A program made the position numbers and the translations under genes. A model generated the notes under the pieces. It saw only the letters and a list, made by a program, of their open reading frames with translations. It was not told where the DNA came from and searched no databases. Shown here piece after piece: positions 7,642-62,540 of a DNA stretch of 64,000 nt; the stretch's first letter is position 1, and every line of letters starts with the position of its first letter. This DNA comes from an uncultured Methanomicrobiaceae archaeon (lineage in GTDB: Archaea > Halobacteriota > Methanomicrobia > Methanomicrobiales > Methanoculleaceae), in the NCBI GenBank assembly GCA_963826525.1, contig CAWGXH010000004.1, forward strand, positions 1,216,001 to 1,280,000. Reading direction: 5' to 3'.

Positions 7642-8034
7642 TCATCCTGCCCGGTAGCAGGATGACCTGATGATATCGACTTTTGTCGGTTTTCCCCAGT
7701 CCTGACCCTCTACCTCGCGAGCGAGGGTCGATCCGGCGTATTTGACCTTGATCCGTGCCGACATGCGCTCGCGCTCCTCGAAGTAGACCGGATTGACGAA
7801 CTCGACGAGCCGCTTCATGCTGATGGTGAGCGCAAGGAGATCGACGAGAATCCCGGGATCACCCTCGGAGAAATCGTCCTGGTCGACCGAGGTCATGAAG
7901 ATACACTCGCCCGGCGCTGCCTCGGTCAGGGAGATGATGTTGTGGGCGCTTGAGAGTTCGATCGTGCGGGCTTTTCCGTTCTTGAGCTCTGCAATGACTG
8001 ATGGTGAGATTCCGGTTAATGCTGTGCACATCAT
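7642..8034 (-). CDS. DUF473-like archaeal protein
   Basis: N-terminus MMCTALTGISPSVIAEL..RTIEL.SAHN recalled as the DUF473 pattern; lies downstream of the PAC2 gene. Confidence 0.7.
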   Translation of the reverse strand: MMCTALTGISPSVIAELKNGKARTIELSSAHNIISLTEAAPGECIFMTSVDQDDFSEGDPGILVDLLALTISMKRLVEFVNPVYFEERERMSARIKVKYAGSTLAREVEGQDWGKPTKVDIIRSSCYRAG

Positions 8035-8039
8035 GAGTA

Positions 8040-8759
8040 TCACCCGTACATCGGCAGCTGCTGTTCCCGCCTCCCGGGCGCTGCTTCGCTTTTCTGCATC
8101 TGCTCTGCAACCTGTGCCATGGCCGCTTCGATCTCTACCGCCTGCTCCATGAGCGGCTGCACGTCGAGACCGAGGTTGTAGATCTTATTGAGCACCTCGA
8201 TCGTCGATGCCGACGCCCGCGGGTCGGGCGTGTTCACCGTCTCTCCGAGAAGTCCTATCGCCGGGATGCTCCGGGTCTTGCACTCGGTGAGGATACTCGC
8301 CGCAATCCCGGAGATGCTGCCCATGGGCAGGATGATCGTCTCGTCCGCAATCTTCTGCAGAACGTCCTGTGTCGTCGCCACACCGAAGACACGCTTCTCG
8401 GGCTCATTGGTAATGATGCCGGCGATAGTGACGATCTCCTGGAGGTTGTACTGGGTGAGCCAGTTCATGATCCCGTCTGCCACCTCGTAGCAGATCATCG
8501 GGTGGATCGGGACGTCGGAGACGATTGCCGCAAGGCTATCCTTTTCATAGAGCCGTACCGGGGCACTTATCACGCCCTTTGCCATGAGGGCGACCGGCGG
8601 AAAGTACTTGCTCGTAATCGATCCGATCTGCTCGAACTCCATCTGTTCGACCAGGTACTGCAGTGCGATACTGCCCACGAGACCACTGCCGGGAAAACCG
8701 ATCAACACTGTTTTTTCAGCGCTGCCGAGGTCCCTGGCGGTTACCTTTATATCGTCCAT
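8040..8759 (-). CDS. Proteasome assembly chaperone (PAC2 family)
   Basis: LIGFPGSGLVGSIA, PDPRAS and a C-terminal MYG tail. Confidence 0.9.
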   Translation of the reverse strand: MDDIKVTARDLGSAEKTVLIGFPGSGLVGSIALQYLVEQMEFEQIGSITSKYFPPVALMAKGVISAPVRLYEKDSLAAIVSDVPIHPMICYEVADGIMNWLTQYNLQEIVTIAGIITNEPEKRVFGVATTQDVLQKIADETIILPMGSISGIAASILTECKTRSIPAIGLLGETVNTPDPRASASTIEVLNKIYNLGLDVQPLMEQAVEIEAAMAQVAEQMQKSEAAPGRREQQLPMYG

Positions 8760-8819
8760 ACGCTCACATCACTCCCCGTCGGATTAGTTTAACATAGCTG
8801 GATGTCCCTTAAAAATATT

Positions 8820-9138
8820 ATGCAAGAGTACCCGATTAAGCGAGGATACGGTAAAAATCTCGAAGAGAATATGATCCAGAGCCTCCGGGATCAGTTCGGG
8901 GTGGAGCCCCTCGAGTCCGGCGGCCACCACACCATCGCCTTCGGTGCTCTGCAGCGTCTCGAAGTATGGACCGGGGAGAAGGGCAAGACGCTGATCGTCG
9001 ATACGGAATCGAACGCGGACGTGGACGACGAGACGATCATCGAGACGAACCGCCGGTTCCGGAAGTACCTCGAACTGGTGACCGGGTACAACTCGAAAGA
9101 GCGTGCGAAGAAGGCAAAGAAAGTTATCGACGGACTGA
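8820..9138 (+). CDS. DUF5611-like small archaeal protein (true stop probably TGA at 9136-9138 after a +1 error)
   Basis: MQEYPIKRG...FRKYLELVTGYNSKERAKK. Removing one G in gac(g)gactgatag gives GAC GAC TGA TAG. Confidence 0.75.
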
Positions 9139-14052: not shown

Positions 14053-14419
14053 TCATTCACCCTTATTAGCATATACCTTCTCTGGATCAAAGACTTTCCC
14101 GGAGATCTCTTCTCCGTCGATGGTTCGATAGAAGCAGACTCATATGGCCGGTATGGCAGGCCGCGCCCTGCTGCTCCACCAGGTAGAGGATGGCGTCCTC
14201 GTCGCAGTCGGTCAGGATCCTGACGATTCGCTGCACATGACCGCTCTCTTCGCCTTTTTTCCAGATCTTTTGTCTGCTCCTGCTATAGTAATGAGCATAC
14301 CCGGTATCTCTGGTACGTTTCAGTGCCGCATCGTTAGCATAGGCGAGCATCAGCACCTCGCGGGTGGTCGAGTCCTGTACTATAACGGGCACCAGGCCAC
14401 CGTCAAAGTTGATTGTCAT
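14053..14419 (-). CDS. hisI: Phosphoribosyl-AMP cyclohydrolase (+1 frameshift near 14138)
   Basis: [24 protein letters not shown] and ACHTG. The shifted frame continues [11 protein letters not shown]...VYANKGE*. Confidence 0.93.
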
Positions 14420-19309: not shown

Positions 19310-20348
19310 ATGGGATTTAAAGACGTCATGGACAACCTCTTAAATCGCGGCCCTGCCCGGAGCCACGACCTCCCCGACGCCGATCTTGAGACTGTCGAGC
19401 GTCGGCAGCAGGATATCCTCGACAAGATCGAGCATCAGCGCAAGACACGTGTGGGGTTCGGCAAGTTCATCAAAAATCCGGTGAAGTTCCTCACCGAGAA
19501 CCCGGTAAACGTCCTCTACATCTCTGTGCCGCTCGCCCTCGTCCTGCTCGCCGGAGGGTTTGTCACCCTCCTTGCCAATTATGGGATTTCGGTGCTCTTC
19601 TCGACGACAATGGTCGATGATGTGGCCGTCTTTGCCCTTCTCCTTGCCATCATCCCGCTCGCACTCCTGGACTTCAGGGAGTCCCGGCGGGTGAACAGCA
19701 TCGAGGAGTCGCTCCCGAACTTCTTCCGGGATGTCGCGGGGATGAACGACTCGGGAATGACGCTGCCGCATGCCATCCGGATCGTATCGGAGGGTGAGTA
19801 CGGGTACGCTCACGCCCCATATCCGGGAACTCGAGAAAGAGATGTCGTGGAGCGTGCCGTTTGTGGAGGCCATACGCCGGTTCGGCAGCCGGGTGAACAC
19901 CCCGCTCGCTGCACGGAGCGTCGACCTCATCGCTCACGCGAGTGCTGCCGGCGGGGACGTCTCCGAGGTTCTGCGGGCTGCCGCAAACGATGCATATGAG
20001 TTCTTCAACCTGAAGAGCGAGCGGCAGAACAACATGATGATCTATATGATAATCGTTCTGATGTCGTTCTTCGTCTTCCTCTTCGTCATCGGCGTCCTCT
20101 CGAGCACTTTCCTCGCCACCATGGCCGAGGCCGGCAAAGCAGTCTCCTCATCCGGCGCATCGAGTCAGTTCATGGGGTCGGTCAACCTCTTCCTCTACAA
20201 CAGGCTCTTCTGCCACGCCGCGCTTATCCAGGGATTCTTCTCCGGACTTGCCGCCGGTGTTATGGGTGAAGGACGAGTGGTCGCCGGCCTGAAGTATTCG
20301 GCCATGATGGTGATCATTGCCTGGGTTGCGTTCCGTTTCTTTATATAA
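19310..20348 (+). CDS. Second TadC-like F-family membrane protein (+1 frameshift near 19803)
   Basis: IEESLPNFFRD...EGEYG-TLTPHI...QGFFSGLAAGVMGEG across two frames. Confidence 0.9.
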
Positions 20349-46290: not shown

Positions 46291-46861
46291 ATGGACGACC
46301 AGGTCTACCAGCCCGAAGCCGATACCTGCCTGCTGCTCAGGGCGGCACAAAGAGAGGTTCGCCCGGGCGATCGGGTGCTCGAGGTCGGCACCGGCAGCGG
46401 CCGGGTTGCCGCCGGGCTTATCGGGTCTGGGGGGAGTGTTACCGCAACCGATATCAACCCGTATGCCGTGCTCGCCGCCCGCTCGTGCGGTGTCGAGACG
46501 GTGCGATGCGATCTCGCCGCCGGTCTTGCCGGACCGTTCGATCTCGTCGTTTTCAACCCGCCCTATCTGCCGACGTCGCCGGAGGAGCGTATAGACGACT
46601 GGCTTGAGTATGCCCTCGATGGAGGGCCGGACGGGAGAAGGGTGATCGAGCGGTTCATCCGTGATCTCGACCGCATCTTATCGCCGTACGGGCGAGTCCT
46701 GCTGCTCGTCTCCTCGCTTACGGATCCTGATGCAGTACCGGAAGATCTTCGCCGCTCACGGGTTCGTATCGTTCATCGTCGACGAAGAAAGCCTTGAGGG
46801 GGAGATGCTGTACGTGCTCCGGGCAACACGGGACCTCTGCCGGGTCACCGCAATCGGTTGA
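46291..46861 (+). CDS. HemK2/MTQ2 family methyltransferase (+1 frameshift near 46738)
   Basis: VYQPEADT, LEVGTGSG, FNPPYLP and GGPDGR. Confidence 0.9.
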
Positions 46862-47480
46862 TGGTGCTTAAGACTCCGAGGAGTGTGGGAGTGTTCTCCT
46901 GCACCGAACGGAGCATCCTCATGCGTTCACTCAGATTCTCCGCCGTCATACATTCGTAAAAGACACAGTAGGCGAAGAATCCGTGGATTTTATGCGCCGG
47001 GAGCGGGTCGTTCTCCGCGGTGATGCTGTTTTTGTCGAAGGTATACTCAGGCTCGGTTATGATCCTATCCCAGCCTGCGATGATCCCGGTGATGTTTGGG
47101 TGTTTTAACGAGAGTTCGAAGAAAAGGGGGGATGTCTGGAGCAGATCGCAGGCCTCGCTCCGGAGTTCGTCGTCGACGATTGAAAGGCGGCTCCGGGCGA
47201 TGGTATCGAGCACCCGTGGCGTCTTCTGGAGCTCTGTCCGGAGATTCGGATACTCGAGCCACAACCGGGAAAAGATATCGGGATCGGGAGATATCCGATA
47301 CACCGCGGAGTCCGTATCCTCTGCAGCATCGGATATGATATCTCCGCTGTGTATGAGACCGTCGAGGATCTCTCTGATCCGGCCGTCATCGGCGGAGCGA
47401 CCGGCTGCAATCATCTCCTGTTTTGAGAGTTCGCCGCTCTCTAATAGGTGCCGAAAAATGTTCTCCGTGATTCCCGCCAT
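46845..47480 (-). CDS. Hypothetical protein with possible N-terminal winged-helix domain
   Basis: IFRHLLESGELSKQEM...IREILDGLIHSGDI...VYRI resembles a wHTH pattern. Confidence 0.55.
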   Translation of the reverse strand: MAGITENIFRHLLESGELSKQEMIAAGRSADDGRIREILDGLIHSGDIISDAAEDTDSAVYRISPDPDIFSRLWLEYPNLRTELQKTPRVLDTIARSRLSIVDDELRSEACDLLQTSPLFFELSLKHPNITGIIAGWDRIITEPEYTFDKNSITAENDPLPAHKIHGFFAYCVFYECMTAENLSERMRMLRSVQENTPTLLGVLSTINRLR

Positions 47481-47868
47481 GCCCTCTCCTCAACGGTGCA
47501 TATTCGTATCTGCCATTGGTGCTTCCCTGCGATATCTCTTCTGGAATGATTATTTCGGAAAACGACTCTGATGGTAAACTTTGGTTGCAATTCTCTAGGT
47601 TTTTGGAAATATTGTTCATTCTTCCTTCTTCATTCCTGAGTATTATTTCTCCGATCAGGATCGCCACGCACATGGCATCCGAGGGTGTTCGCGCGTTCTG
47701 CCACAACGATGGGCCGGGGAAAGGTAGGCTCACCCTCGGGGTCAGGAACGAAGCAGACCCCTCTTCCGGCTCGAATCGGAAGACGGATGGGAGACAGATC
47801 TGCGATAAGGTTTAAGGTGCCTGCCAGTAGTAGGGATGAGCCACACCGGGGCTCGCCGGGAGACTTGC

Positions 47869-50800
47869 ATGGAGGTACCAGGAGTGAGTGAATCGAGAGT
47901 GCGGGAACGCCGCGCACTCTGCGGCATCTGTGCTGCAGGCTGCGGCGTCATCGTTACCTACGACGACGAAGGAAGGATAGCCGGTGTGCGGCCGGATGAG
48001 AACTCTGAGATTGGGATCCTCTGCAAACTGGGCGAGCATACGCCGGAGATCGTCTACTCGCAAGACCGGGTGCTCCACCCGTTAAAGCGGGTAGGTCCGA
48101 AGGGGACGTACGAGTTTGAACGGATCTCGTGGGACGAGGCATATGCGATCATCGTGCAGAACCTCACCCGGATCAAGGAAGAGCACGGGCCGAAGGCCGC
48201 TGCAATTTACACCGGCTCGGGCAGTTTCGAACTCTCGCACTGCGACGTATTCCAGCCGAAAGACGTAGCAGTCTCCTCGGCGTCGAGCGTGCTCTTTCCC
48301 TACGGCTCCCCGAACACCATGGGCGTCGGCGCCCTCTGTTACGTTTCGTTCGCGATGATAGCCCCCCACGTCACCATGGGAAGGCTCCACATCAACACCT
48401 ACTCCGATTTTGAGAACGCCGATCTCATCGTGGTCTGGGGTACAAATCCCGCCACCGATTTCCCGCCTCTGACCCTCCGGAAGATCCTGGCGGCGAAAAA
48501 CCGCGGTGCCGAGGTCGTCGTCATCGATCCCCGTCGGACGAAGACCGTCGATCTTGCCGGTGCGGAGTGGGTGCCGATCCGTCCGGGCACCGACGGGGCA
48601 CTCGCACTCGGGCTCTGCAATGTCCTGATCGGGGAGGAACTCTACGACGAGGAGTTTGTCCGGAACTGGACACACGGTTTTCCGGAGTTTACCGCCTACG
48701 TCCAGCACTTCCGGCCGGAGGTCGTGGAGGAGATCACCGGCGTGCCTGCAGAGACCGTTCTCTCGCTCGCCCGGCGGATAACTGCGGCGGACGGCGCGAC
48801 GTGGGCGATGTACACCGGGCTTGAGTACAGCGACTCCGGTGTGCAGGCGATCCGGGCCGCCATCGTCCTCTGGGCGCTCGCCGGCAAGATGGACGTTCCC
48901 GGCGGCCGCTGCTTCTCGATGCTCGAGAATACCTTCCCCATCAATCGTTCGGAGTACCTGGCAGAATCCGGATCTGAACCGGGCGATAGGGGTCGACCGG
49001 TTCCCGGTCTATACGACATACCGGCAGGAGGCGCACCCGATCGCCCTCCCCGAATCCGTCCTGCACGGAAGACCCTACAGAATACGGGCTCTGATCATCC
49101 AGGCCGGGCACCTCCTGATTTCCTGGCCGGAGACTCCGCTCTGGCGCGAGACGCTGGAGAACCTGGAGTTCCTTGTCTGCGTCGACCGTACCCTCACTGC
49201 CGATGCGGCGTACGCCGATCTCGTGCTCCCGGCGACGACGATGTACGAGCGTGAGTCGTATATGACCTACGGTCCTCTCTTCCGGATCCGCGAAAGGGTC
49301 ATCGAGCCACTCGGCGAGGCGCGGCACGATGTCTTCATCATGGCAGAACTTGCCCGGCGCCTCGGGTACGGTCACCTCTATCCGCAGGACGAGGAGGCGA
49401 TGCTCCGGCACGTTCTGAAGGGCTCAGGGTTCAGCCTTGAGGACGTTCGGGAGGCCGGCGGGTCGGTGCAGTCGCCGACGGTGATGATGCAGTACAAAAA
49501 GTGGGAGAAGGGTCTTCTCCGGCCGGACGGAATGCCCGGGTTCGATACGCCGACGGGGAAGTTTGAGATCTGGTCGACGATCCTCGAGGAGTCCGGCTAC
49601 GACCCGCTTCCGGTCTACACGGAACCGCAGGAGAGCCCGGTCTCCAGGCCCGATGTTGCGGAGACGTATCCATTGATCTTCAACTCCGGTGCCCGGGTGA
49701 CGACCGATTTTCATGCACAGCACCACGGAGTAGAAGGCCTGCTCCGGGAGCGTCCCGAACCGACAGTGACGCTCAATACCCGCGATGCGGAGGAGCGCGG
49801 GATCAAAACCGGCGATCGGGTCTCTGTCAGAACGCTGCGTGGGCGGATTCCCCTCCGGGCGATCGTCACCGACGATATCGTTCAGGGTGCCGTGGAGGCG
49901 AATATGGGCGGCGGGTGCCACGTCGGGCCGAAGGCCTGGCAGGAGGGAAACGTCAACGAGCTGACCGATATGCAGCGTTACGATCCCATCTCCGGTTTTC
50001 CCGTCTACAAGGTGCTCCTCTGCGATGTAACCCGGATGGACAGTCCTGCCGGGGAGACGGTCGCCATCGGTTCGGGTGAGCTCGACGCTCCCCGGGACCT
50101 GCCGTCGGCCGCCGCCCCTGAGATTGCCCGGATCTACCTCGACCACAATGCCACGACCCCAATCGATCCCGCGGTCTGGCAGACGATGGTCGCTTTCGGT
50201 GAGGCGAACTACGCCAACCCGTCGAGCATCTACCGGGAAGGCAAGGCGGCAAAAAGAGCAGTGGAGGATACCCGGCGTATGCTCGCCCGGCTCCTTGGCT
50301 GCACGGCAAAACGGATCGTCTTTACCGGGTGCTGCACCGAGGCGAATAACTTCCTCATCAAGGGGCTGGCGTTCGCCTCCCGGGATGGTGAGAGAAAGCA
50401 CCTCATCACCTCGTCGGTCGAGCATTCGTCGGTGCTCGAACCTATCCGGTGGCTCAAGAAGTTCGGGTTTACCGTGACCGAGCTTCCCGTCGATCCGACC
50501 GGGCGCGTCAGTCCCGGTGATCTCGCGGAGGCGATCACGGCGGAGACGCTGCTCGTCAGTATCATGACGGCGAACAACGAGACCGGTTCGATCCAGCCGA
50601 TCCGCGAACTCGCCCGCGTAGCGCACGAGAACGGGGCACTCTTCCACACGGACGCGACGCAGGCGATAGGAAAGATCCCGGTCGACGTCGCCGACCTGGA
50701 CGTCGACTTCCTCAGCCTCTCGGGCCACAAAATCTACGGGCCGAAGGGGGTCGGTGCTCTGTACATTCGCAAGGGGATCGAGATCGATCCGCTCCTTCAC

Positions 50801-51286
50801 GGGGGCGAACAGGAGCGAGGCCTGCGTGCCGGCACGGAGAACGTGCTCGGGATCGTCGGGCTCGGCCGGGCGGCGGAGCTTGCCGGGCAGCACCTTGCCG
50901 GGATGGAGGAGGTCAGGCGGCTCCGTGACCGTCTTGAAGACGGCATACGGGCACTTGTTCCCGAAGCACGGTTGAACGGGCATCCGACGCAGCGCCTCCC
51001 GAATACGGTTAATATGACGCTCCCCGGCTATCGGGGGGAGTCGGTGGTGCTCGCCCTCGACCAGCAGGGGATCTGCATCTCCTCCGGCTCGGCGTGCCAC
51101 TCGGGGTCGCCGGCACCGTCGCACGTGCTGCGTGCGATGGGTCTCTCAGACGAGGAGGTTCACTGCTCGGTGCGGATCTCTCTCGGTGCCGGGACGACTG
51201 AAGAGGAGGTCGATCGGACGCTTGCGGTTCTGGACGAGACGCTTCATAACCGGGAGGCGGCCGTCCGGTTCGTGACCTGCCGGTAG
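47869..51286 (+). CDS. Metallopterin oxidoreductase-cysteine desulfurase fusion; probable metallopterin-dependent ergothioneine synthase (+1 frameshift near 48961)
   Basis: 4Fe-4S motif CGICAAGC..LC; VVIDPRRT, IRPGTDGALA, ADLVLPATT; then YLDHNATT, SGHK (PLP lysine), RAGTEN, SSGSAC and C-terminal RFVTCR. Confidence 0.85.
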
Positions 51287-51625
51287 GGAGGTTCCCTCTC
51301 TCTCCTCGCATACAGGCCGGGCAGGCTCCCGGAAAGTCTTCCGTTTATCTGCCCGGGAGCCGTGAGCGTATGCCGGGTTCTTCGGTATACCGGGCGCAGA
51401 CTTCTCTGCCGTTCCCCGCAATGTTTTTATTGCATTGGCAGGATCGATTCGGTTCTATGGCGTATTCTGACAGGGCATGTGAAAGGCTGCAGGAGGACAG
51501 ATCGGTGGATAGCCCGTCCCGGGCGCCCTCGTACGGGCAGGGTGTTCGTATGAACGCCGCCCCCGGAGTGCTCTGTTCGCAGGTGTCACAGGCCCGCCTT
51601 CCGGTTCCGGACGGTCGGAACGACG

Positions 51626-52664
51626 ATGTCTCACGCCACTGGTGCGGAACCTGCGGAGTGTCCGGAGATGCAGACCGGTGGCGGCGAGGAGTCGAGGCTT
51701 GAAGTCAGGAACTATCTCACCCGCTCGTTCTCCGAGGAGATTGCCCGCGACGTCCGTCTCGGCCTATCCGGCGACCAAAAGCGGATCCCGAGCAAATACT
51801 TCTACGACGAGCGGGGTTCGCGGCTCTTTGAAGAGATCTGCATGCTCCCCGAGTATTACCCCACCCGAACCGAGATGGCCATCCTGCAGGAGTACGCCCC
51901 GGCGATCATGGAGCCGTTTGCCGGCGGCGATCTCGTGGAGATGGGGTCGGGAGCTAACTGGAAGATCTGCCATCTGATCGATGCTGCAGAGCAGGCGGAC
52001 GGTCGCGGCATACGCTATGTCCCGGTCGATGTGAGTGAGTCTGCTCTTCGAACGGCTGCCCTTGGATCTGATCCGGCGGTATGACGCTCTCTCCGTCCTC
52101 GGGATCGTCGCCGACTTTACCCGCGACCTCGATCGCATACCGGATGACAATACCCGGATCATAAGCCTCTTCGGCGGAACGCTCGGTAACTTCACCGAGA
52201 CGGAGTCCGAACGCCTGCTCGGGATGGTCGCCGGGCTCATGCACCCGGGCGACCGGTTCCTCCTCGGCCTCGATATGGTGAAGGATATACCGGTTCTCGA
52301 GGCGGCGTACAACGACTCCCGGGGAGTGACCGCTGCGTTTAACCGGAACATCTTAAACGTCGTCAACCAGGAACTCAACGCCGACTTCGATTGCTCCCTC
52401 TTCGATCACGTTGCGTTCTTCAACAGCGAAGCGGAACAGATCGAGATGTACCTTGCGGCACAGCAGGCAGTGACCGTCGATATCGGGCTCCTCGATATGA
52501 CGGTGGAGTTCCGGGAGGGCGAGACGATTCATACCGAGATATCCCGCAAGTTCAGCAGAGAGAGTGCTATGCGGCTCTTCGACCGGGCAGGCCTTGCGGC
52601 GGAACGCTGGTTCACCGACGACGCCGGATGGTTCTCGCTCGTTGAGCTCGCCGGAAGCGACTGA
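51626..52664 (+). CDS. egtD: L-histidine N-alpha-methyltransferase, EgtD/EanA type (+1 frameshift near 52063)
   Basis: SKYFYDERGSRLFEEIC.LPEYYPTRTE, EMGSG, YVPVDVS, TLGNF, AYNDSRGVTAAFN and IHTEISRKF. Confidence 0.92.
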
Positions 52665-52744: not shown

Positions 52745-53212
52745 ATGAGGACACTCATCATCTACACCTCGGTACATCACGGGAATACCGAGAAGGTCGC
52801 CCAGGCGATGGCGGGGGTGCTTGGTGCCGATATCGTCGCTGCGGCACGAGCCGAGCCCGGGCTGATCGACCGCTACGATCTGATCGGTTTCGGGTCGGGT
52901 ATCTATCACGGCCGCCATCACCAGACCCTCTTCCGCTTCGTCGATCTGCTCCCGGCTGTTGACGGAATGCTTGCGTTCGTCTTCTCGACGAGCGGGCGGG
53001 GTGTGGCGCAGGATCATACCGCCCTGAAACTGGAACTCGAAGCGAAAGGGTTCCGGATAGTGGGTGACTTCACCTGTAAGGGCTGGGATACCTACACCGT
53101 GCTCGGCCTCGTCGGCGGGATCAACAAGGGAAGGCCCGATGCCCGGGACCTTATGCATGCAGGGGAATTTGCAGAGAGCCTTGCGAGACAGTGGGGAAAT
53201 GCCGGTCGATAG
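52745..53212 (+). CDS. Flavodoxin family protein
   Basis: IYTSVHHGNTEKVA, YDLIGFGSGIY and FSTSG. Confidence 0.92.
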   Translation: MRTLIIYTSVHHGNTEKVAQAMAGVLGADIVAAARAEPGLIDRYDLIGFGSGIYHGRHHQTLFRFVDLLPAVDGMLAFVFSTSGRGVAQDHTALKLELEAKGFRIVGDFTCKGWDTYTVLGLVGGINKGRPDARDLMHAGEFAESLARQWGNAGR

Positions 53213-57979: not shown

Positions 57980-59763
57980 TCACGTCCGCTGGAACATCCG
58001 GTCGAGCTTCTGCTTCGACAGCGCCACCACCGTCGGGCGGCCGTGCGGGCAGGTCCAGGGAGTCTTCGTCGCCGCGAGCTGATCGATGAGCCGCCGCATC
58101 TGCTCGCCCGTGAGCAGAGCTCCGGCCTTCACCGCTCCCCGGCAGGCGACGACCGTCGTTACCCGCTCCTTCACTCCGGCTGCGGTCTTCTGCCCGTCAC
58201 CGATGAGGTCGGTGATCGTCTCGCGGATCACCGCCGTATCCTCAAGCTTCCCGAGCACGACCGGTACCGCCCTGACGGCGTAGGTGTCCCGTCCGAACTC
58301 CTCGACGACGAACCCTTCTTCGGCGAGAAGGGGGATTGCCTCGCGGATGATCGCCGACTCGCCCGGCCGCAGCGAGAGGATCACCGGCATGAGCAGTTCC
58401 TGCGACCGGTCTTCTGCGTCGCGCCGCTCTACGACCTGTTCGTAGAGGACCCGCTCGTGGGCGGCGTGCTGGTCGATGAGGTAGAGCGTCCCGTCCGGCC
58501 CCGCGGGCGACGATGTAGGTCGCAGCGACCTGCCCTATCGGCTCCATCGCAGGGAGAAAGTTCTGCTCTCCCGGAGTAGCGAGTTCCGTCTGGCGGAGGC
58601 TGGCGGTCGGAGGCGGCGAGCATCCGGTGGCTGGGAGCATAGGCCGGCTCCGGTGACGCGACCAGCCCGATCTCCGGGAGCGGGGGAAGATCGGGCGCTA
58701 TAGCGGTCTGAACCGGCTCACCGTCCCTCTCGTCGCGGGAGAGATCCCGGCCGCCGAGCGCCTCCGCCACTGCATCCGTGATCGCGGAGAGGATCTCCCT
58801 CTCCCGGCTGAGCCTTACTTCGCGCTTGGTGGGGTGGACGTTCACGTCGACGAGGGTCGTGTCGATGTCGAGGTCGAGGAAGACCACCGGGTAGCGGTCT
58901 TTCGGGAGCAGGGTGCCGTATCCCTCCCTGATCGCGCCGACGATCGGGCGGGAGGCGACGCTCCGGCCGTTGATGCTGACGCTGACCTGGAACGGGCTTC
59001 CTCGGCTCTCCGCCGGACGGGAGATGTAACCTCCCATCCGCATAAACGGCGTCCGCCCTGCAACCGGGATCAGTGACCGGGCGAGATCGATCCCGTGGAG
59101 GCCGACGATGGCGTCGCGGAGCTCCGCCGACCGCTGGGTCGCTATCCGTTCCCGGCCGTTCTGTACCAGGCGGAATGCGATGTCGCTGTGGGCGAGGGCT
59201 ATCGTCTCGACCGTGCCGTAGAGGTGGGCAAGTTCGGTATTCCGGCTCTTTAAGAACTTCCGGCGGGCGGGGGTGTTGTAGAAGAGATCCTCTACAATTA
59301 CCGTCGTCCCCTCGGGAGCGCCGGTCTCGCGGTCTTCGAGCACCTCGCCGCCCCGGACGACGATCCTTCTGGCGGCGATCGTCCCCTCTCCTCTCGCCCG
59401 GGTAACCAGCGTCACCTGCGCCACAGCGGCGATGCTGGCGAGCGCCTCGCCCCGGAACCCCAGTGTCCGGATGACGTGCAGGTCCCCGATCTCCCGTATC
59501 TTACTCGTTGCATGGGGCTCGAAGGCGAGGAGCGCCTCCTCGGGCGTCATCCCGCACCCGTCGTCGGTGATCCGGATCCGCGTGATTCCTTTCATATCGG
59601 AGGTCACGTCTACGAGGATGGACGTCGCCCCGGCATCGACGGCGTTCTCGACGAGTTCCTTGACGACCGACGCCGGCCGCTCCACCACCTCGCCGGCGGC
59701 GATCTGGTTCACCGTCGCGGGGTCGAGCCGGTGGATCCGGGGTTCGGGGACAGGAGCGTTCAT
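57980..59763 (-). CDS. mutL: DNA mismatch repair protein MutL (+1 frameshifts near 58600 and 58499)
   Basis: NQIAAGEVVERP, GFRGEAL, DVNVHPTK, DQHAAHER, ACRGA and CPHGRP. Confidence 0.96.
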
Positions 59764-62384
59764 CGCTGCCCGTTTCCTCCGTTTGCCAGGTTCCTGAGCC
59801 GGTGGAGGGTGTTTAAGGCCGCGAGCGGGGTCATTTCGTCGAGATTCATCGCCCGGAGCTCTTCGACCGCCGGGTTCACCTCGACGACGCCCTCACCCGT
59901 ATCGACGAGCAGCATCTGGGTGTAGCGGGGCGTCTTTCCGCCGCCTTTCAACTCCTGCGCCATCGCCTCTTTGAGGATGACGAGCGCCCGCTCGGTCACC
60001 TTCTTCGGGATACCGGCAAGCTCCGCGACGTGGACGCCGTAACTCTTATCGGTCGCACCCTGGACGAGTCGCCGGAGGAAGATCACCTCGCGTCCCGTAT
60101 CCTTCACTGCGAAGTGGAAGTTTCTCACCCGCTTGAGTCTCCCCTCGAGCTCGATCAAGCTCGTGAAAGTGGGTGGCGAAGAGCGTGCGCGGGCCGACCA
60201 CCGCTTTGCCGTGGAGGAACTCGACCACCGCCTGGGCTATCGAGAACCCATCGAGGGTGCTCGTTCCCCTGCCGATCTCGTCGAGGATTACGAGGCTCTG
60301 CGGCGTGACGTTGTTGAGGATGTTCGCAAGTTCGAGCATCTCCACCATGAAGGTGCTCTGGCCGCTCGCAAGGTCGTCGAACGCCCCGACCCGGGTGAAG
60401 ACCCGGTCGACGATTCCGATCGTGGCGTGCCGGGCGGGGACGAAGCTTCCCATCTGGGCCATGATGCAGAGGAGAGCGACCGCCCGCATGTACGTTGACT
60501 TTCCGGCCATGTTCGCGCCGGTGACGATCATGATCTGGTTGCCGCTCCCATCGAGGTCGGTGTCGTTCGGCACGAACCCGAACTCCATGCTCCGCTCCAC
60601 GACCGGGTGGCGCCCCTCCCTGAACGACGATCCGGCTGCTCTCCTCGATGACCGGGCGGGTATAGTCGTAACGGGCCGCATTCTCGGCGAGGGCCGCATA
60701 GACGTCGAGGTGCCCGATCGCCCGGGCGGTCGCCTGCAACGCGGGAACGCATTCGGCGAGCGTCCTCACCAGTTCGGCGTAGACCTCCGCCTCCAGAACC
60801 GAGAGCCGCTCTTCGGCGGTTGCGATCAGCGCCTCCTTCTCGCGAAGCTCGGGGATGGTATACCGCTCGCCGTTCGCCGTCGTCTGCCGGCGCTCGGTAC
60901 TCTTCCGGCACCAGGTGGAGGTTCGCCCTCGTCACCTCGATGAAGTAGCCGAAGATGCGGTTGTAGGAGACCTTCAGGGATTTGATTCCGGTGCGTTCCC
61001 GCTCCTGCTGCTGGAACTGCCCGATCCAGTCCTTCCCCGAGGTCGAGAGGCTCCGCAGTTCGTCGAGGTCGGCATCGAACCCTTCCCGGATCATCCCCCC
61101 CGATCGCGCCAGCGCCGGAGGTTCGTCGACGATCGCCCGGGCGATGAGATCCGCGGTCGCGGAGAGATCGCTCATGGCGTCGAGGGCTCCCCTGATATTC
61201 TCCGGCATGTCACCTGTGAGAAGTTCCTTTAAGGCCGGGATTCTCTCTATCGACTCGGTCAGCGTGACCAGATCGCGCGGCCCGGCATTCCCGTAGGATA
61301 TCCGCCCGGCGATCCGCTCGATATCGCCGCACCGGTCGAGATGGGCGCGGAGGTCTGCTCGTACCATCGCACTATCGACGAAGTACTCGACCGCATCGAG
61401 CCGCCGGCCGATAGCCTCCGGGTCGATCAGGGGGGCTATCAGGAACGATCGCATCAGGCGGCTGCCCATCGAGGTCTCGGTGACGTCGAGGGCATCGAGG
61501 AGCGTGACACCGGCCGCCTCGCCCCGGATACTCTTCGTGATTTCGAGGTTCCGGAGGGTGATGGCGTCGAGCACCATATTCCGTGCCGAAAACCTCGTTG
61601 CAAGGCCGGCGATGTGGGCGAGTCCCGACTGCTGTGTCTCCCGGGCGTAGCGGAGGGCGGCGCCTGCGGCAGCGACCGCCCCGTCGAGTTCCTCGCAGCC
61701 GTATCCGGCGAGCGAACTCGTGCCGAACTGCTCGCAGAGGAGCGAGCGGGCGGTCTCTGTGAGGAAGGCATCGTCACGGTAGCGGGAAACGAGAATGCCC
61801 TGCGCCCGGAGCCTGCCGGCGAGCGCGTCGGGAGCGCTCTCCGGGACGATGCACTCGGACGGGCGGTAGCGGACGACCTCCGAGACGACCTCGCCATAAT
61901 CGCGCCCTGCATCCGAGGCCGAGACGAAGAACTCACCGGTGGAGACGTCGAGGAATGCCGTTCCGATCGATCCCTTCTTCCCGGGAGCGACGGCCATGAG
62001 GTACTGTGCGCCCGATGACCCGAGCATCGAGGAGTCGATGACCGTGCCGGGCGTGATGACGCGCACGACATCCCGCTTCACGATGCCCTTCGCCTTCTTC
62101 GGGTCTTCGACCTGGTCGCAGACCACCACCTTGAACCCTTTGTTCACCAAGCGGGCGATGTAGCCCTCGGCGGCATGGTGAGGGACACCGGCGAGCGGCA
62201 TCCGTTCACCGTTTTTGTCCCGTCCGCGGGAGGTCAGGACTATATCGAGCTCGCGCGCAACGACGGCGGCATCTTCACCGAAGGTCTCGTAAAAGTCACC
62301 CATCTGGAAGAAGAGGATAGCATCGGGGTGCTCTGCCTTAGCCGTATAGTACTGTTTCATCGCCGGGCTTGGTCCGTCCTTCAT
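59760..62384 (-). CDS. mutS: DNA mismatch repair protein MutS1 (+1 frameshifts near 60896, 60622 and 60157)
   Basis: [46 protein letters not shown] and SYGVHVA. Confidence 0.96.
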
Positions 62385-62540
62385 CGCGCTTCACTAGTAG
62401 GTCCTCGCGAGGGCACATAAGGCCTGCGTCTCCGCCGGAAAAGTGAAGATCCGGCGGAACCGGGTGCACCGGATCGGCAGAAATCGCGTGGTGCAGCCAA
62501 ACTACATACGTCATAAGAGCACAGTTTTACCCGGTAATAC

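Follow-up and report, generated by a model that had tools for sequence, protein, structure and literature searches.

The window analysed here is a 64,000-nucleotide stretch of the genome of an uncultured Methanomicrobiaceae archaeon (GenBank assembly GCA_963826525.1; C4:1216001-1280000 in our numbering). It carries a gene in which a molybdopterin enzyme is fused to a cysteine desulfurase, followed by a gene for an EgtD-type histidine methyltransferase. The sequence supports assignment of the fusion to the metallopterin-dependent ergothioneine synthase (MES) family. In this Methanoculleus-like methanogen the two genes together probably form an oxygen-independent ergothioneine cassette, with the single-base breaks that interrupt both of them being insertion errors of the assembly. 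From this we infer that the host organism synthesizes ergothioneine. Family membership, catalytic residues and gene pairing are read from the sequence, and the mechanism is taken from work on Caldithrix abyssi.

The MES fusion and its EgtD partner

The MES of Caldithrix abyssi (CaMES) was described in 2022 by Beliaeva and Seebeck (PMC9516567). A member of the family is expected to contain an acetylene-hydratase-like module that binds a bis-molybdopterin guanine dinucleotide (bis-MGD) cofactor, with an Fe4S4 cluster held by C14, C17, C21 and C48 and with C153 as metal ligand (PMC9516567). The desulfurase module is marked by K952 and C1074, a conserved C1097 and an essential penultimate C1135, the role of which rests on a C1135S mutant (PMC9516567). 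Both modules are needed on one polypeptide, since intramolecular sulfur transfer is obligatory (PMC9516567). For comparison we used an open reading frame (ORF) of 1136 amino acids (aa) on a contig of a metagenome-assembled genome (MAG) labelled Caldithrix abyssi (locus L049), in which the nine residues stand at exactly the published numbers; it is this ORF, and not the deposited CaMES record, to which the C. abyssi comparisons refer.

As assembled, the fusion occupies two overlapping ORFs, 47836..49254 (+, frame 1) and 48821..51286 (+, frame 2). Read from the ATG at 47869, it encodes 364 aa, one codon at the break and 773 aa, and thus ~1138 aa once one extra base is skipped, which agrees with the ~1,140-aa ORF that a preliminary description of this DNA had obtained by a +1 correction. 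The first piece is 70.4% identical to the L049 protein over 348 aa (residues 9-356) and the second 61.6% identical over 776 columns (residues 362-1136). The intact MES of Methanoculleus taiwanensis (genome G001, identified from its protein listing), the nearest sampled relative, with 88% DNA identity and synteny over the entire window, is 64.0% identical to L049 over 1130 columns. All nine named residues are kept in the window protein, and their columns are invariant across 15 diverse aligned members of the family. The alignment to C. abyssi MES that the preliminary description had suggested therefore finds every catalytic cysteine in place. The positions of the MES features are as follows.

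47869..48960, + strand: MES first piece, 364 aa, frame 1; start uncertain within 47836-47905
47920-22, 47929-31, 47941-43 and 48022-24, + strand: Fe4S4 cysteines C18, C21, C25 and C52, aligning to C. abyssi C14, C17, C21 and C48
48337-39, + strand: putative Mo/W-ligating Cys157 (in GVGALC), aligning to C. abyssi C153
48961..48964, + strand: MES frameshift site, four bases against one codon in relatives; extra base at 48962
48965..51286 (coding to 51283), + strand: MES second piece, 773 aa and TAG stop, frame 2; rest of the molybdopterin domain, MGD-binding domain, linker and class-V cysteine desulfurase
50729-31, + strand: lysine for pyridoxal 5'-phosphate (PLP), aligning to C. abyssi K952
51095-97, + strand: persulfide Cys, aligning to C. 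abyssi C1074
51164-66, + strand: conserved Cys, aligning to C. abyssi C1097
51278-80, + strand: penultimate Cys, aligning to C. abyssi C1135; protein C-terminus ...VRFVTCR

Domain searches agree with the fusion of a Mo-pterin module to an IscS-type desulfurase that had been proposed before. With Pfam, the first piece matches Molybdop_Fe4S4 slightly below the cut-off (21.4 against 22.7 bits) and Molybdopterin over profile positions 1-222; the second piece continues Molybdopterin at 260-352 and matches Molydop_binding and a full Aminotran_5 domain (9e-84). With NCBIfam, models of NifS/IscS-type desulfurases and of Fdh/PhsA/DmsA-type Mo enzymes are all matched below their cut-offs, although the C-terminal 370 aa match NifS/IscS models at 4e-148 and desulfurase structures at about 1e-95. 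The NifS/IscS models that fall short are the equivalog models; the broad PRK02948 subfamily model alone passes, for the M. taiwanensis protein (312 vs 304 bits). The motifs first noticed in this DNA, ALCGICAAGCG (its CxxCxxxC cluster), PNTMGVGALC, LSGHK, SSGSAC and the C-terminal RFVTCR, are all present in the translations. Chance is not at issue for the cassette, with E-values of 1e-29 to 1e-84 and 92-93% identity to relatives.

In the copy of the PDB that was searched, no MES structure was found, and the matches were separate desulfurases and acetylene hydratase. The best solved relative of the Mo enzyme (searched with the M. taiwanensis orthologue) is acetylene hydratase 2e7z, at E 8.4e-74 compared with E 0 for MES relatives.

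To place the protein within the family, one genome per prokaryotic species was scanned with an alignment of 15 homologues. The scan yielded at least 599 stretches, at least 485 of which encode a relative, and 80 were kept. An unrooted FastTree phylogeny was calculated from 80 rows; the incomplete rows L030, L048, L073, L088 and L007 were omitted and the window was represented by its C-terminal piece only. In this tree the window pairs with M. taiwanensis (support 100), followed by G002 (99). The group falls inside a nine-row Methanomicrobiales clade (99), itself within a 12-row archaeal clade (100) that stands amid MES sequences; the further rows of the larger clade are a MAG of the Methanosarcinales, a Ca. 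Methanospirareceae MAG and a contig labelled Desulfobacteria. Grouping with non-MES acetylene hydratases or formate dehydrogenases, named in the preliminary description as the outcome that would count against an MES, does not occur in the tree. The earlier MES assignment is thus upheld by 62-70% identity to the C. abyssi protein, by the nine retained residues and by the position inside the MES tree.

The contig labelled as a Desulfobacteria bacterium (L023) encodes an MES 75% identical to that of M. taiwanensis, and it lies beside the Ca. Methanospirareceae sequence in the tree (support 98). Either the contig is archaeal and was mis-binned, or the gene passed recently from an archaeon to a bacterium.

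Downstream of the fusion, the EgtD gene is likewise split, into ORFs 51626..52084 (+, frame 2) and 52035..52664 (+, frame 0); from the ATG at 51668 it reads as 130 + 1 + 200 aa. The two pieces match the TIGR03438 profile at positions 2-104 and 107-299 with 122.5 and 214.6 bits, each below the cut-off of 290.9 bits, whereas the intact M. taiwanensis EgtD scores 347.2 bits against this equivalog model. Both pieces are colinear with the EgtD proteins of Mycobacterium smegmatis (4pim) and M. tuberculosis (7scf), with E-values of 6e-24 and 1e-45. In native 7scf numbering, Y39, F47 and Y56 in the first piece and T163, N166, Y206, T213, M252, E282 and S284 in the second are identical to the mycobacterial enzymes; M252 presumably has a role in specificity. 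An EgtD-type histidine methyltransferase 3' of the fusion, as originally described, is thus borne out by the Methyltransf_33 match and by the histidine-site residues, and the proposed check of its substrate pocket found all residues compared to be identical to 4pim and 7scf. The histidine-site residues of EgtD are Tyr39, Phe47, Tyr56, Thr163, Asn166, Tyr206, Thr213, Glu282 and Ser284 (PMC8593015). The EgtD features and the spacer that precedes them are as follows.

51287..51667, no strand: MES-EgtD spacer, 381 bases, poorly conserved compared with M. taiwanensis
51668..52057, + strand: EgtD first piece, 130 aa, frame 2; Methyltransf_33 profile 2-104; an earlier ATG at 51626 is possible
52058..52061, + strand: EgtD frameshift site GCCC, one codon in relatives; extra base in the C run, placed at 52059
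52062..52664 (coding to 52661), + strand: EgtD second piece, 200 aa and TGA stop, frame 0; Methyltransf_33 profile 107-301

If the cassette functions as its relatives do, EgtD would trimethylate histidine with S-adenosylmethionine, giving hercynine (TMH). The C-terminal PLP-dependent desulfurase of MES would take the sulfur of cysteine as a persulfide on its active-site Cys; from there the penultimate Cys, in the tail, would ferry it within the chain to the Mo/W centre, where a metal-sulfido species would sulfurize the imidazole C2 of hercynine. MES accepts either Mo or W, and the Mo(VI)=S/Mo(IV) cycle proposed for it is completed with no donor or acceptor from outside (PMC9516567). By our own reasoning, a cycle that closes on itself would make the net reaction independent of an external electron carrier.

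Compared with CaMES, the window protein has the same architecture, nearly the same length (~1138 vs 1136 aa) and, likewise, an adjacent EgtD. It differs in that its host is a methanogenic archaeon, in carrying one extra base in the assembly, in the 381-base spacer that separates it from EgtD, and in being known from sequence. Ergothioneine was produced in E. coli by an archaeal MES, EaMES of Euryarchaeota archaeon ADurb.Bin009 (PMC9516567, Table 1), and archaeal members of the family are hence not new; the organism that EaMES comes from is unclassified within Methanobacteriota in the NCBI taxonomy. The N-terminal module shares the Fe4S4 cluster and the bis-MGD fold family with the tungsten enzyme acetylene hydratase (2e7z) and the DMSO reductase family, but these are far more distant, lack a fused desulfurase and a C-terminal Cys tail, and perform different chemistry. 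What sets the desulfurase apart from IscS and NifS is its fusion to a Mo module and the MES-specific ...F-x-x-C-R tail at its end. EgtD resembles its mycobacterial counterparts in being colinear over the whole length, with the histidine- and carboxylate-binding residues kept; unlike them, it is paired with MES and not with EgtB, and it is frameshifted in this assembly.

Single-base breaks in both genes

An MES is expected to be a single polypeptide, and in the window it is divided between two frames. In a five-way DNA alignment, the window alone has extra bases at 48962 and 52059, and all four relatives (G001, G002, G015 and G003) lack both. Without the extra base, the window MES reads YLENP, as in M. 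taiwanensis, and EgtD reads RTAALDLIRRY (RTAAVDLLRRY in M. taiwanensis). The fusion is one open frame of 1151-1182 aa in G001, G002 and G015, in which EgtD is also intact. Each break is thus a single extra base to be skipped, as the +1 correction had assumed. The breaks had been placed near 48961 and 52063; the first of these positions is close to that in the alignment, and the second is a few bases off.

Similar changes are found throughout the window. Over ~62 kb compared with M. taiwanensis, 34 clean, isolated one-base insertions were counted against 11 deletions (61 vs 31 when all are counted), and the insertions are often outside homopolymers. Such an excess of insertions is in keeping with uncorrected consensus error from noisy long reads. 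When 52 M. taiwanensis ORFs, chosen by third-position mismatch periodicity, were compared with the window, 14 matched it in more than one frame, and EgtD is a further case outside the 52. Examples of shifts are at 14132-14136, 19716-19804, 39642, 39916, 41233, 44635, 46738, 58497-58601 and 60133-60895. Shifts fall inside Pfam-matched domains (in the M. taiwanensis versions) of SRP54, where the N domain is hit, prefoldin (two), HisI, a T2SSF-like protein, MutL (two) and MutS (three); RpoF and an MTS methyltransferase are also frame-shifted. Coverage by ORFs of at least 300 aa is 0.61 in the window and 0.62-0.64 in the contigs of the genome, and 0.70 in the M. taiwanensis region; this is a weak proxy at 60% GC, and the figures agree with a genome-wide frame problem. 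Because the SRP54 N-domain shift together with all the others would be intolerable in a free-living cell, and because insertions exceed deletions 3:1, we consider it very probable that both breaks are assembly artefacts and not the marks of pseudogenes. That the frameshift is real, a possibility raised in the preliminary description, is at odds with the four relatives that lack the base and with the similar insertions in neighbouring genes. Given the frequent one-base insertions, apparent pseudogenes in this assembly should not be trusted.

MutL and MutS, both bacterial-type, are encoded side by side at 57983-62387 (-) and are intact in M. taiwanensis. Their shifts are read as the same assembly error, but a real mismatch-repair defect is conceivable. 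Outside the window, a second IscS-like desulfurase (G000:C4:312074-313211, where G000 is the host genome) is split into two frames at query residue 592. In an 89%-complete MAG of a sister genus (G003:C7:17838-21030, locus L018), the N part of MES, with an open frame of 290 aa, likewise appears to be out of frame with the remainder, which has an open frame of 1050 aa.

Several points weigh against the reading of a working cassette interrupted by assembly errors. Neither MES nor EgtD is open as assembled, and if the insertions were real they would leave the pathway dead, because MES needs both modules on one polypeptide. A pattern over the MES break, searched for in metagenome contigs both as assembled and with the extra base removed, returned 0 stretches, and so gave no second assembly of the same species. 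The count of frame changes is crude: at least one of the 14, the Hjc-like case, lies upstream of the true start, the same may hold for the CobQ and FtsY changes, and the 52 ORFs may include spurious ones. Because MutS and MutL carry shifts of their own, a real mutator lineage is conceivable. Finally, the 381-base spacer between MES and EgtD does not imply co-transcription; it gave no RNA family match in Rfam, which in the whole window returned two tRNAs only.

One alternative is that both genes are real pseudogenes, ergothioneine synthesis having been lost by true one-base insertions, perhaps in a mismatch-repair-deficient lineage. The frameshifts are present in the assembled sequence, MutS and MutL are frameshifted too, MES is patchy in the order (16/401 genomes), and losses do occur, as in the Methanoculleus genome G011, where EgtD stands at the same position but MES is missing. 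However, like insertions in the SRP54 N domain, prefoldin and HisI would be jointly intolerable in a free-living cell, and the 3:1 excess of insertions, many of them outside homopolymers, is more easily explained by long-read consensus error than by mutator decay. Apart from the extra bases, the sequence around both sites is well conserved, and the MES and EgtD pieces retain 90-92% protein identity to M. taiwanensis without further damage. We therefore regard true loss as unlikely. Programmed translational frameshifting would suit the fact that each of the two neighbouring genes needs a +1 shift, but it is hardly credible: the frames are plainly open at both sites in 4/4 relatives, shifts of this kind also occur here and there in unrelated genes, and no RNA element was found with Rfam.

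A different possibility is that the fusion is intact but is not an ergothioneine synthase; for instance, it might sulfurate a metal cofactor or thiolate another heterocycle, with the hercynine made by EgtD serving some other purpose. The assignment of the Methanomicrobiales MES is sequence-based, the public name of the protein says no more than IscS subfamily desulfurase, and related Mo enzymes of unassigned function may sulfurize other heterocycles (PMC9516567). Against this stand 62-70% identity to a characterized enzyme with every functional residue kept, the conserved adjacency to a histidine-specific EgtD, and the production of ergothioneine in E. coli by four MES homologues, including an archaeal one (PMC9516567, Table 1). 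We judge this alternative very improbable, and an ergothioneine cassette interrupted by assembly errors remains the preferred explanation.

Pairing, distribution and significance

The host genome comprises 3.06 Mb in 16 contigs and is 87.6% complete and 5.3% contaminated, compared with 98-99% completeness for its congeners. It encodes McrA, and the host is therefore a methanogen. The bis-MGD cofactor is available in methanogens for formylmethanofuran dehydrogenases, and a MobA-like NTP_transf_3 gene is present in this genome. Other routes to ergothioneine were also considered. No TIGR03440 match indicative of EgtB was obtained in the 87.6%-complete genome. No EanB-like gene was found there either, by examination of the rhodanese genes and without a dedicated EanB model; the rhodanese domains are encoded far from the cassette, and the one candidate, of 456 aa, was ruled out as an MBL-rhodanese fusion.

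If MES and EgtD act in one pathway, they are expected to occur together. Among 41 close relatives, including the host, full-length MES was found in five and EgtD in six, and the two genes are adjacent in all five MES carriers. Among the 80 kept loci of other species, 64 have an EgtD-like gene within the 3-kb flanks of MES, and at least 10 of the 16 loci without one end at a contig edge, the C. abyssi contig among them. Across the order Methanomicrobiales, a search with the window N-terminal piece detected MES in 16/401 sampled genomes (9/215 of high quality; 8/44 genera), with frames open at 1136-1212 aa where contigs allow.

EgtD without MES is encoded by G011, a 99%-complete genome of the genus Methanoculleus. 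In an 18-kb locus (L105, G011:C1:122000-139999), EgtD lies at 7867-9075, after KsgA and an MTS methyltransferase, at the same genomic position as elsewhere, with a MatE transporter gene in the place of MES and an ABC importer downstream. No MES remnant was found in this locus. This organism may make hercynine only, or it may use another sulfur-transfer enzyme.

Neither the enzyme nor the pathway is new, since MES in anaerobic archaea, including one active archaeal homologue, has already been reported (PMC9516567). The main text of that report does not name methanogens, and its supplementary Table S1 (about 80 genomes) may already list Methanoculleus. A literature search on ergothioneine with Methanoculleus or methanogens, judged by title and abstract, found no paper on MES in methanogens among those listed, nor one that ties ergothioneine to Methanoculleus. 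Neither Pfam nor NCBIfam contains an MES model, and for this reason the enzyme is hidden in public annotation, where close homologues are named "IscS subfamily cysteine desulfurase", "aminotransferase V" or "cysteine desulfurase NifS". An intact MES-EgtD pair is carried by cultured methanogens such as M. taiwanensis, whose MES appears in public records under the first of these names only.

MES is rare and patchy in Methanomicrobiales and forms one archaeal clade among bacterial sequences. It is reasonably likely that oxygen-free ergothioneine synthesis occurs in some hydrogenotrophic methanogens, namely in the Methanoculleus group and in a few further genera of the Methanomicrobiales, by an MES-EgtD pair that seems to have been laterally exchanged with anaerobic bacteria. 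If so, methanogens in digesters, sediments and guts would be an unrecognized source of ergothioneine, and a function of ergothioneine other than classical antioxidant defence would be suggested for strictly anoxic cells rich in metal cofactors. A cultivable methanogen that bears both genes makes the role of ergothioneine in strict anaerobes testable.

Genes flanking the cassette

A flavodoxin-like gene (Flavodoxin_5, 3.6e-10) lies at 52745-53212 (+), 80 bases 3' of EgtD; its DNA aligns to that of G001, G002 and G003 and not to that of G015. As the cycle proposed for MES would run without an external electron carrier, nothing evidently ties this gene to the pathway. Upstream of MES and divergent from it is a 211-aa ORF at 46845-47480 (-) without a Pfam match; its DNA is conserved in G001 and G002, and it could encode a regulator.

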